Notes under the pieces: model-generated | The model's database searches: none | Seen by the model: only the letters and a program-made list of their open reading frames with translations | Told to the model about the DNA's origin: nothing | Shown here: piece after piece, positions 40,283 to 47,296 of the stretch | How the letters are laid out: the number at the start of each line of letters is the position of its first letter | Position numbering within the stretch: the stretch's first letter is position 1 | Assembly: GCF_055900595.2 (NCBI RefSeq) | Contig: NZ_CM148325.1 | Direction: 5' to 3' (one strand) | DNA: 64,000 nt | Program-made: the position numbers and the translations under genes

Positions 40283-42211
40283 ATGCCTGTTATAACTCTT
40301 CCTGATGGCAGCCAACGCCATTACGACCACGCTGTAAGCCCCATGGATGTTGCGCTGGACATTGGTCCAGGTCTGGCGAAAGCCTGTATCGCAGGGCGCG
40401 TTAATGGTGAACTGGTTGATGCTTGCGATCTGATTGAAAACGACGCACAACTGTCGATCATTACCGCCAAAGACGAAGAAGGTCTGGAGATCATTCGTCA
40501 CTCCTGTGCGCACCTGTTAGGGCACGCGATTAAACAACTTTGGCCGCATACCAAAATGGCAATCGGCCCGGTTATTGACAACGGTTTTTATTACGACGTT
40601 GATCTTGACCGCACGTTAACCCAGGAAGATGTCGAAGCACTCGAGAAGCGGATGCATGAGCTTGCTGAGAAAAACTACGACGTCATTAAAAAGAAAGTCA
40701 GCTGGCACGAAGCGCGTGAAACTTTCGCCAACCGTGGGGAGAGCTACAAAGTCTCCATTCTTGACGAAAACATCGCCCATGATGACAAGCCAGGTCTGTA
40801 CTTCCATGAAGAATATGTCGACATGTGCCGCGGTCCGCACGTACCGAACATGCGTTTCTGCCATCATTTCAAACTGATGAAAACGGCAGGGGCTTACTGG
40901 CGTGGCGACAGCAACAACAAAATGTTGCAACGTATTTACGGTACGGCGTGGGCAGACAAAAAAGCGCTAAACGCTTACCTGCAGCGCCTTGAAGAAGCCG
41001 CGAAACGCGACCACCGTAAAATCGGTAAACAGCTCGACCTGTACCATATGCAGGAAGAAGCGCCGGGTATGGTCTTCTGGCACAACGACGGTTGGACCAT
41101 CTTCCGTGAACTGGAAGTGTTTGTTCGTTCTAAACTGAAAGAGTACCAGTATCAGGAAGTTAAAGGTCCGTTCATGATGGACCGTGTTCTGTGGGAAAAA
41201 ACCGGTCACTGGGACAACTACAAAGATGCAATGTTCACCACGTCTTCTGAGAACCGTGAATACTGCATTAAGCCGATGAACTGCCCGGGTCACGTACAAA
41301 TTTTCAACCAGGGGCTGAAGTCTTATCGCGATCTGCCGCTGCGTATGGCCGAGTTTGGTAGCTGCCACCGTAACGAGCCGTCAGGTTCGCTGCATGGCCT
41401 GATGCGTGTACGTGGTTTTACCCAGGATGACGCGCATATCTTCTGTACTGAAGAACAAATTCGCGATGAAGTTAACGGATGTATCCGTTTAGTCTATGAT
41501 ATGTACAGCACTTTTGGCTTCGAGAAGATCGTCGTCAAACTCTCCACTCGTCCTGAAAAACGTATTGGCAGCGACGAAATGTGGGATCGTGCTGAGGCGG
41601 ACCTGGCAGTTGCGCTGGAAGAAAACAACATCCCGTTTGAATATCAACTGGGTGAAGGCGCTTTCTACGGTCCGAAAATTGAATTTACCCTGTATGACTG
41701 CCTCGATCGTGCTTGGCAGTGCGGTACAGTACAGCTGGACTTCTCCTTGCCGTCTCGTCTGAGCGCCTCCTATGTGGGTGAAGACAACGAGCGTAAGGTA
41801 CCGGTAATGATTCACCGCGCAATTCTGGGGTCGATGGAACGTTTCATCGGTATCCTGACCGAAGAATTCGCTGGTTTCTTCCCGACCTGGCTTGCGCCGG
41901 TTCAGGTTGTTATCATGAATATTACCGATTCACAGTCTGAATACGTTAACGAATTGACGCAAAAACTATCAAATGCGGGCATTCGTGTTAAAGCAGACTT
42001 GAGAAATGAGAAGATTGGCTTTAAAATCCGCGAGCACACTTTGCGTCGCGTCCCATATATGCTGGTCTGTGGTGATAAAGAGGTGGAATCAGGCAAAGTT
42101 GCCGTTCGCACCCGCCGTGGTAAAGACCTGGGAAGCATGGACGTAAATGAAGTGATCGAGAAGCTGCAACAAGAGATTCGCAGCCGCAGTCTTAAACAAT
42201 TGGAGGAATAA
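40283..42211 (+). CDS. thrS: threonine--tRNA ligase
   Basis: 642 aa, class II aaRS. Confidence 0.97.
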
Positions 42212-42757
<546 letters not shown>

Positions 42758-42829
42758 GGCCTTCAAGTAGCACTGTCTGTGGAGCCTTTGGGCTTCACAG
42801 GCATTGTTCGCCTTTGTTTCGTTTATTAA

Positions 42830-43051
<222 letters not shown>

Positions 43052-43076
43052 GCCGTTAACGTTTTTAACTTTTTAA

Positions 43077-43460
<384 letters not shown>

Positions 43461-43478
43461 GCCAGTTGAAAGAGGGAG

Positions 43479-43510
43479 CTAGTCTCCCTCTTTTCGTTTC
43501 AACGCCATCA
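43479..43510 (+). terminator. intrinsic terminator after rplT
   Basis: AGAGGGAGctagtCTCCCTCT followed by a T-run. Confidence 0.8.
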
Positions 43511-43582
43511 AAACATTGACTTTTATCGCCGTAGCCTTTTCAATAAAGGTCTTTTGAAAAGTACCAAAAGGTAACGCAAGCA

Positions 43583-43627
43583 ATGAATGCTGCTATTTTC
43601 CGCTTCTTTTTTTACTTTAGCACCTGA
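43583..43627 (+). CDS. pheM: pheST attenuator leader peptide
   Basis: ATG AAT GCT GCT ATT TTC CGC TTC TTT TTT TAC TTT AGC ACC TGA = [14 protein letters not shown], five Phe codons. Confidence 0.9.
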
Positions 43628-43674
43628 CTCCAGGAGGCTAGCGCGTGAGAAGAGAAACGGAAAACAGCGCCTGA

Positions 43675-43700
43675 AAGCCTCCCAGTGGAGGCTTTTTTTG
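43675..43700 (+). terminator. pheST attenuator terminator
   Basis: GCCTCCcagtGGAGGC followed by T7. Confidence 0.85.
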
Positions 43701-43868
43701 TATGCGCGTTTTGAAAAATAAAAAGCCTGTCTCATCAGGCGTAATTGTCGCAGCCAGTCTGGGCACGGCCAGCGCGGAGAAACCGGAGCGTACTTAAGTA
43801 CGTGAGGATTTCGAGCACTGCCCGGGACCAAAATGGCAAGTAAAATAGCCTGATGGGATAGGCTCTAA

Positions 43869-44894
<1,026 letters not shown>

Positions 44895-44905
44895 GGCAGG
44901 AATAG

Positions 44906-47296
<2,391 letters not shown>

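Follow-up and report, generated by a model that had tools for sequence, protein, structure and literature searches.

The pheM leader and its gene neighbourhood

The window, a stretch of 64,000 nucleotides from contig NZ_CM148325.1 of RefSeq assembly GCF_055900595.2, carries the genes thrS-infC-rpmI-rplT-pheM-pheS-pheT-ihfA in this order, as read from the annotation of an identical E. coli record. A 491-nt query across the pheM region had a match in 5425 of 5426 complete genomes and was identical (100%) to a large number of E. coli chromosomes. The RefSeq label in a 100% identical record is 'pheST operon leader peptide PheM' (WP_001386830.1), placed between rplT and pheS, and our translation of the leader coincides with this annotated PheM. 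Both the pheM CDS and the 'Phe leader region' feature of that record map onto the window at the positions given in Table 1. The leader shares its strand with its neighbours and lies upstream of pheS-pheT-ihfA in the identical record as well as in K-12. When pheM of E. coli K-12 (b1715) was compared by arrangement and lengths, the gene order rplT-pheM-pheS-pheT-ihfA, the lengths of the pheM and pheS CDSs and the 283-nt gap between pheM and pheS were all those of the window; nothing of substance was different, indicating the same element in another E. coli strain. The primary descriptions of pheM are reportedly those of Fayat et al. (1983) and Springer et al. (1983, 1985) in J Mol Biol.

The leader ORF reads ATG AAT GCT GCT ATT TTC CGC TTC TTT TTT TAC TTT AGC ACC TGA, with its ATG at 43583 and its TGA ending at 43627. 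Five of its 14 sense codons specify Phe (codons 6, 8, 9, 10 and 12; TTC TTC TTT TTT TTT; 43598..43618), so that a short, Phe-rich ORF with a start codon of its own precedes the Phe-tRNA synthetase genes. A preliminary description, made from the letters of the window, had proposed a 14-codon leader ORF with five Phe codons and an attenuator at 43583..43700, upstream of pheS. Translation bears out the ORF, and the coordinates are accurate. The element does lie upstream of pheS but is not adjacent to it: the pheS ATG at 43911 is 211 nt past the T-run of the terminator, with a repeat element of about 146 bp inside the gap. The absence of the leader from the ORF track had been put down to its size, which is plausible, as the ORF lister has a minimum of 20 aa and did not list the leader. 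A run of one amino acid is not by itself rare among the small ORFs of the window. Five of one residue in seven are seen in 11 of its 930 ATG ORFs (8-40 codons long), and pheM is the sole Phe case.

Table 1. Positions in the window of the pheM leader elements and of the features around them
Feature	Position	Strand	Basis and remarks
Terminator-like hairpin right after the rplT stop codon (43458..43460)	43468..43494	+	11 pairs, -15.6 kcal/mol, z -2.9
Candidate pheM promoter (-35 TTGACT 43516..43521, 17-nt spacer, -10 TTCAAT 43539..43544)	43516..43544	+	conservation
Shine-Dalgarno-like AAGG in conserved block AAGGTAACGCAAGCA	43568..43571	+	11-12 nt before the pheM ATG
Rfam Phe_leader (RF01859) match	43577..43701	+	coincides with the RefSeq 'Phe leader region' feature
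pheM leader and stop codon	43583..43627	+	translation; RefSeq CDS pheM WP_001386830.1 at the matching position
Long 1:2 hairpin	43589..43670	+	MFE structure, -36.5 kcal/mol by itself
Antiterminator (2:3), GGAGGCUAG.GCGU (43633..43646) with GCGCCU...AGCCUCC (43667..43682)	43633..43682	+	masked folding of the nascent transcript, -17.2 kcal/mol
Intrinsic terminator (3:4), GAAAGCCUCC-CAGU-GGAGGCUUUU and T-run	43673..43699	+	terminator scan; -14.9 kcal/mol; aligns to the RF01859 terminator helix
pheS, first regulated structural gene	43911..44894	+	RefSeq annotation of an identical record; ORF list
pheT, after pheS	44909..47296	+	RefSeq annotation of an identical record; ORF list

The Phe_leader family of Rfam (RF01859) matched the leader at 74.4 bits (gathering score 55, E 4.3e-12), over the full-length model (1-125) and on the plus strand. 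A scan of 42000..45000 against Rfam gave no T-box and no other family apart from Phe_leader. The antisense strand scored only 25 bits against Rfam Phe_leader, and 25-34 bits against a pheM-only model in 19 orthologues. Since the long 1:2 hairpin of the leader is nearly palindromic, these weak minus-strand matches (43563..43681) were regarded as artefacts and rejected as a second element.

Conserved blocks upstream of the leader

When 29 upstream regions were aligned, four conserved blocks stood out: the hairpin that follows rplT, TTGACA/TTGACT, TTCAATA, and AAGGTAACGCAAGCA immediately 5' of the ATG. The rplT hairpin, AAAGAGGGAG-CTAGT-CTCCCTCTTT, was missed by the terminator scan; its AGAGGGAG...CTCCCTCTTTT block is conserved across Enterobacterales. 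This hairpin would be the terminator of rplT, separating the rpmI-rplT transcript from the pheM promoter. The TTGACA/TTGACT and TTCAATA blocks, which are likewise conserved upstream of the leader in Enterobacterales, probably constitute the pheM promoter; a scan for promoters gave no result. Across the 29 aligned regions A-G-G-T and the neighbouring bases are invariant, and the AAGG, a weak match 11-12 nt upstream, is a candidate ribosome-binding site for the leader.

A palindromic repeat between the terminator and pheS

The 5' UTR of pheS contains, between the pheM terminator and the gene, an imperfect palindrome of about 146 bp (43724..43869) with 17-nt terminal inverted repeats (43724-43740 and 43848-43864). 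Folded as RNA it reaches -68.5 kcal/mol (z -6.5). There are 2-8 copies of it in an E. coli genome, including one of 85% identity between rlmKL (rlmL) and ycbX. At the pheM-pheS site, 4781 of 5426 complete E. coli genomes (about 88%) match at least 80% of the query. The remaining 645 (12% or so) are without a full repeat match there, and one of them, M114, was inspected. Compared over window positions 43719..43865, M114 lacks exactly 145 bp and reads GAAAAA-AT-TAAGTCC, so that its pheM-pheS gap is 138 nt instead of 283. The repeat is unannotated and had no Rfam match in the scan of 42000..45000. It resembles the ERIC core over some 20 central bases only, in a comparison with what we take to be the ERIC primer sequences. 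The literature on the repeat family was uninformative, and the repeat is given no assignment to ERIC/IRU, RSA or any other family.

Three competing helices in the leader RNA

An intrinsic terminator, reported by the terminator scan, separates the leader ORF from the first structural gene. Its stem-loop (43673..43696; GAAAGCCTCC-CAGT-GGAGGCTTTT in the DNA) has 10 pairs, five of them G-C, closed by a CAGT loop, and its 3' arm runs into seven T (43693..43699), the first four of which belong to the arm itself. This is the GC hairpin with a T7 tract that had been described after the leader ORF.

Upstream of the terminator, the leader coding strand (43589..43615) pairs with 43644..43670 to form the long 1:2 hairpin, a near-continuous duplex of about 30 bp that encloses a small apical hairpin (43617..43641). 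The 1:2 hairpin is predicted to form whenever strand 1 is free of a ribosome. As it ties up the 5' strand of the antiterminator, the terminator can then form. The third helix, the antiterminator, could coexist in the folds with neither the 1:2 hairpin nor the terminator. The sequence basis for this competition is a duplicated motif: GGAGGCU is present at 43633..43639 and again in the terminator 3' arm (43687..43693), and either copy can pair with the one AGCCUCC (43676..43682). The hairpins are thus mutually exclusive.

An RNase III site mapped at K-12 position 1799278 (PMC5371410) corresponds to about position 43575 of the window, 8 nt upstream of the pheM ATG. In a 151-nt fold this site adjoins an outer helix that pairs 43576..43583 with 43697..43704.

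Predicted helix choice in the nascent transcript depends on ribosome position

Folding of the RNA 43583..43705 gave an MFE of -52.2 kcal/mol, compared with -30.5 +/- 3.6 for shuffled sequences (z -6.0), and none of 200 shuffles was as good. The ground state consists of the long 1:2 hairpin together with the terminator. The effect of a translating ribosome was mimicked by placing a 30-nt footprint on each codon in turn and folding the RNA with the footprint masked. With the whole transcript at equilibrium, the terminator persisted for most footprint positions. Attenuation, however, is decided before the terminator 3' arm is made. We therefore used truncated transcripts, in which the RNA is exposed only up to the terminator loop and the 3' arm is not yet present, instead of equilibrium folding.

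In the truncated transcript, whichever of the five Phe codons bore the footprint, the antiterminator formed: GGAGGCU (43633..43639) paired to AGCCUCC (43676..43682), and the terminator 5' arm lost 7 of its 10 nt to this pairing. When there was no ribosome, or when the footprint was at codon 14 or the stop codon (15), 0 nt of the terminator 5' arm was taken. Thus, folding of 43583..43700, which had been suggested as a check for alternative structures, yields mutually exclusive hairpins, and the footprint position decides which of them forms; the outcome that had been named as refuting, a lack of such hairpins, did not arise. Because the terminator wins at equilibrium, the antiterminator depends on a kinetic, co-transcriptional order of events, which goes beyond what folding can demonstrate.

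As a control, the spacer 43628..43672 was subjected to dinucleotide shuffling with the ORF and the terminator kept. A switch was also seen in 39 of the 500 shuffles (about 8%), so the masked-folding switch alone is a weak criterion and not very specific. Given this control and the frequency of residue runs among small ORFs, the weight of the identification rests on the stability of the fold, on conservation, on the Rfam score and on published work.

Leaders of the same architecture in other Enterobacterales

Genome contigs were scanned for orthologues with a pattern encoding IFRFFFYF, which matched at least 120 stretches. Most of the matches in AT-rich genomes are due to chance. Among the matches listed, at least 45 loci carry the leader beside pheS and/or rplT: in 39 the match is flanked by rplT and pheS, both present in the fetched stretch, and six show only one of the two. 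A match from an uncultured Bacilli (rplT only, 54% identity) was set aside as chance. Since the search pattern itself required a Phe-rich core, the conservation of Phe codons in this set is not evidence. When loci among the matches listed were assigned to families by organism name and general taxonomic knowledge, they fell into seven families of Enterobacterales: Enterobacteriaceae (Citrobacter, Enterobacter, Kluyvera, Cedecea and Pluralibacter), Pectobacteriaceae (Pectobacterium and Dickeya), Yersiniaceae (Serratia and Rahnella), Erwiniaceae (Pantoea), Hafniaceae (Hafnia and Edwardsiella), Budviciaceae (Budvicia) and Morganellaceae (Moellerella).

Together with the window, the 42 distinct orthologue leaders among the matches listed make up a set of 43. 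Masked folding of this set gave an antiterminator that is exclusive with the terminator and blocked by the 1:2 helix over the leader codons. A ribosome stalled at Phe sequestered the terminator arm in all 43 leaders. The arm was free in 40 of the 43 without a ribosome and, similarly, in 40 of the 43 with a ribosome at the stop codon.

Retention of pairing was scored on a covariance-model alignment of the 43 leaders, with partners slid by 1-3 columns serving as controls. Pairs of the terminated state (1:2 hairpin and terminator) were standard in 94.3% of cells, compared with 40-64% for the slid controls. Pairs of the antiterminator, which had not been used in building the alignment, were kept in 93.4% of cells, compared with 40-58%. 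The leaders are very similar (79-94% identical), and covariation is sparse for this reason. Examples of covarying column pairs are 27-86 (U-A 20, U-G 17, C-G 5), 18-95 (C-G 12, U-A 4) and 24-89 (C-G 41, U-A 1). For the antiterminator, covariation in the 43 leaders did not rise above that of shuffles, 173 of 500 of which reached the observed score. Six of the 12 pairs with both sides changed fell in the terminator helix; they came mostly from two out-of-register rows, and we discounted this signal as largely an artefact.

Relation to pheL and other leader-peptide attenuators

The closest comparison is with pheL, the leader of the pheA operon, which like pheM combines a short Phe-rich ORF with a long 1:2 hairpin, a G/C-rich CCUCC...GG terminator stem and a U-run. 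Both leaders score above the RF01859 cut-off, pheL with 132.3 bits and pheM with 74.4 bits, indicating that Rfam Phe_leader is centred on pheL and that pheM is a lower-scoring member. A covariance model built from pheM leaders only detected K-12 pheL at 35.9 bits (E 1e-8), with the long hairpin and the terminator aligned. On these comparisons pheM and pheL look paralogous in architecture. They differ in that the pheL CDS has 15 codons and pheM 14 sense codons, that pheL lies about 100 nt before pheA and pheM 283 nt before pheS, and that the gene under pheL control is biosynthetic, while pheM acts on an aminoacyl-tRNA synthetase. The peptide sequences differ as well.

The trpL, hisL, thrL, leuL and ilvL leaders each have an ORF with cognate codons, alternative 1:2, 2:3 and 3:4 helices and an intrinsic terminator. 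This logic is shared by pheM, with its cognate-codon ORF, its 1:2, 2:3 and 3:4 helices as found by folding, and its terminator. By contrast, those five leaders regulate biosynthetic pathways and pheM regulates tRNA synthetase genes, and the 1:2 hairpin of pheM is unusually long. Among the attenuation-type leaders tested for RNase III cleavage, only hisL and pheM were substrates; tnaC is also near a verified RNase III site but is a leader peptide of a different kind (PMC5371410).

Discussion

The element between rplT and pheS is almost certainly the pheM leader of E. coli, an attenuator of the classical ribosome-mediated (trp) type acting on pheS-pheT, which encode the two PheRS subunits. The naming of the locus as pheM leader and attenuator in the preliminary description is thus upheld by base-for-base identity, the RefSeq annotation, the Rfam score, the competing helices, the orthologues and the literature. 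Regulation of pheM by transcription attenuation has been reported, with stem-loops that overlap the peptide and can fold in two alternative ways (PMC5371410). A pheM attenuator reporter has been used experimentally in a study that cites Mayaux et al. 1985 for mutagenesis of the pheS,T regulatory region (PMC3831192), and gamma-proteobacterial pheST has been named as a case of classical attenuation, Firmicutes using T-boxes instead (PMC1262725). Mutagenesis of the leader and measurements of read-through in vivo at low Phe-tRNA are reportedly on record, including a dependence of read-through into pheS on the Phe codons.

In such a mechanism, transcription would start at the promoter some 30-40 nt upstream of pheM, and a ribosome would, as the literature leads one to expect, translate the 14-codon leader while RNA polymerase makes the next 70 nt or so. 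If Phe-tRNA(Phe) is plentiful, the ribosome would reach the UGA, where its footprint would cover the GGAGGCU antiterminator strand just downstream; once it has departed, the long 1:2 hairpin would reform. Either way, AGCCUCC would be free to pair with the second GGAGGCU, and the terminator and U-run would release the RNA ahead of pheS. At low Phe-tRNA(Phe), the ribosome would stall on a Phe codon and hold strand 1, leaving the first GGAGGCU exposed. This copy would capture AGCCUCC once the latter is transcribed, so that the terminator is blocked and the polymerase may proceed into pheS-pheT.

We considered whether the long duplex might serve another purpose. Cleavage of the pheM structure by RNase III has been shown in vitro, and decay of the message downstream is slower in an rnc mutant than in wild type (PMC5371410). 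Together with a hairpin of about 30 near-continuous base pairs and a mapped cut at about 43575, these data could mean that the 1:2 hairpin is mainly a processing site that sets the half-life of pheST mRNA, amino-acid sensing being secondary. We judge this to be very improbable. The authors of that study place the cut within the known attenuator, as an added layer of turnover, and ten other leader-peptide transcripts were not RNase III substrates (PMC5371410), so cleavage is no general feature of attenuators. Moreover, processing as the main function leaves the Phe codons, the duplicated GGAGGCU and the terminator unexplained.

The controls on residue runs (11 of 930 small ORFs in the window) and on the masked-fold switch (8% of spacer shuffles) bear on a simpler possibility, namely that the hairpin and T-run do no more than terminate constitutively, or insulate pheST from rpmI-rplT, and that the Phe-rich ORF arose by chance in T-rich intergenic sequence. 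However, rplT has a conserved terminator-like hairpin of its own (43468..43494), upstream of the conserved -35/-10 elements, so that the pheM terminator belongs to a transcription unit of its own. In seven Enterobacterales families the stretch from rplT to pheS again contains the ORF at the same place, along with the three competing helices, and attenuation of Phe-tRNA synthetase genes is expected to use a cognate, Phe-rich leader such as this one. With attenuation control reported as well (PMC5371410, PMC3831192, PMC1262725), the chances of a mere constitutive terminator are slimmer still. Binding of a protein or of uncharged tRNA to the leader RNA, either as PheRS autoregulation in the manner of ThrRS on thrS mRNA or in a T-box-like way, would suit a neighbourhood in which thrS, infC and rpmI-rplT use protein-RNA feedback, as is generally known, but we give it hardly any credence given that the full leader-peptide architecture is present, that the scan of 42000..45000 matched no T-box or other Rfam family except Phe_leader, and that gamma-proteobacterial pheST is a classical attenuator as opposed to the Firmicutes T-boxes (PMC1262725).

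Downstream of this trp-type attenuator, the palindromic repeat in the pheS 5' UTR may be more than a neutral passenger. It might add a second, strain-variable layer of PheRS control, acting on mRNA stability or on the entry of RNase III/E, an idea that we put forward as speculative and rather unlikely.

The element was already known and experimentally characterised and had been correctly identified from its sequence, and the attenuator is a textbook one. The value of the identification therefore lies in correct annotation only and adds no new biology; leader-peptide attenuators that are missed by ORF tracks can nevertheless be spotted by a reader without tools. For E. coli, the element means that pheM raises the output of phenylalanyl-tRNA synthetase when charged tRNA-Phe is low, a response in vivo that we infer and that the literature describes.
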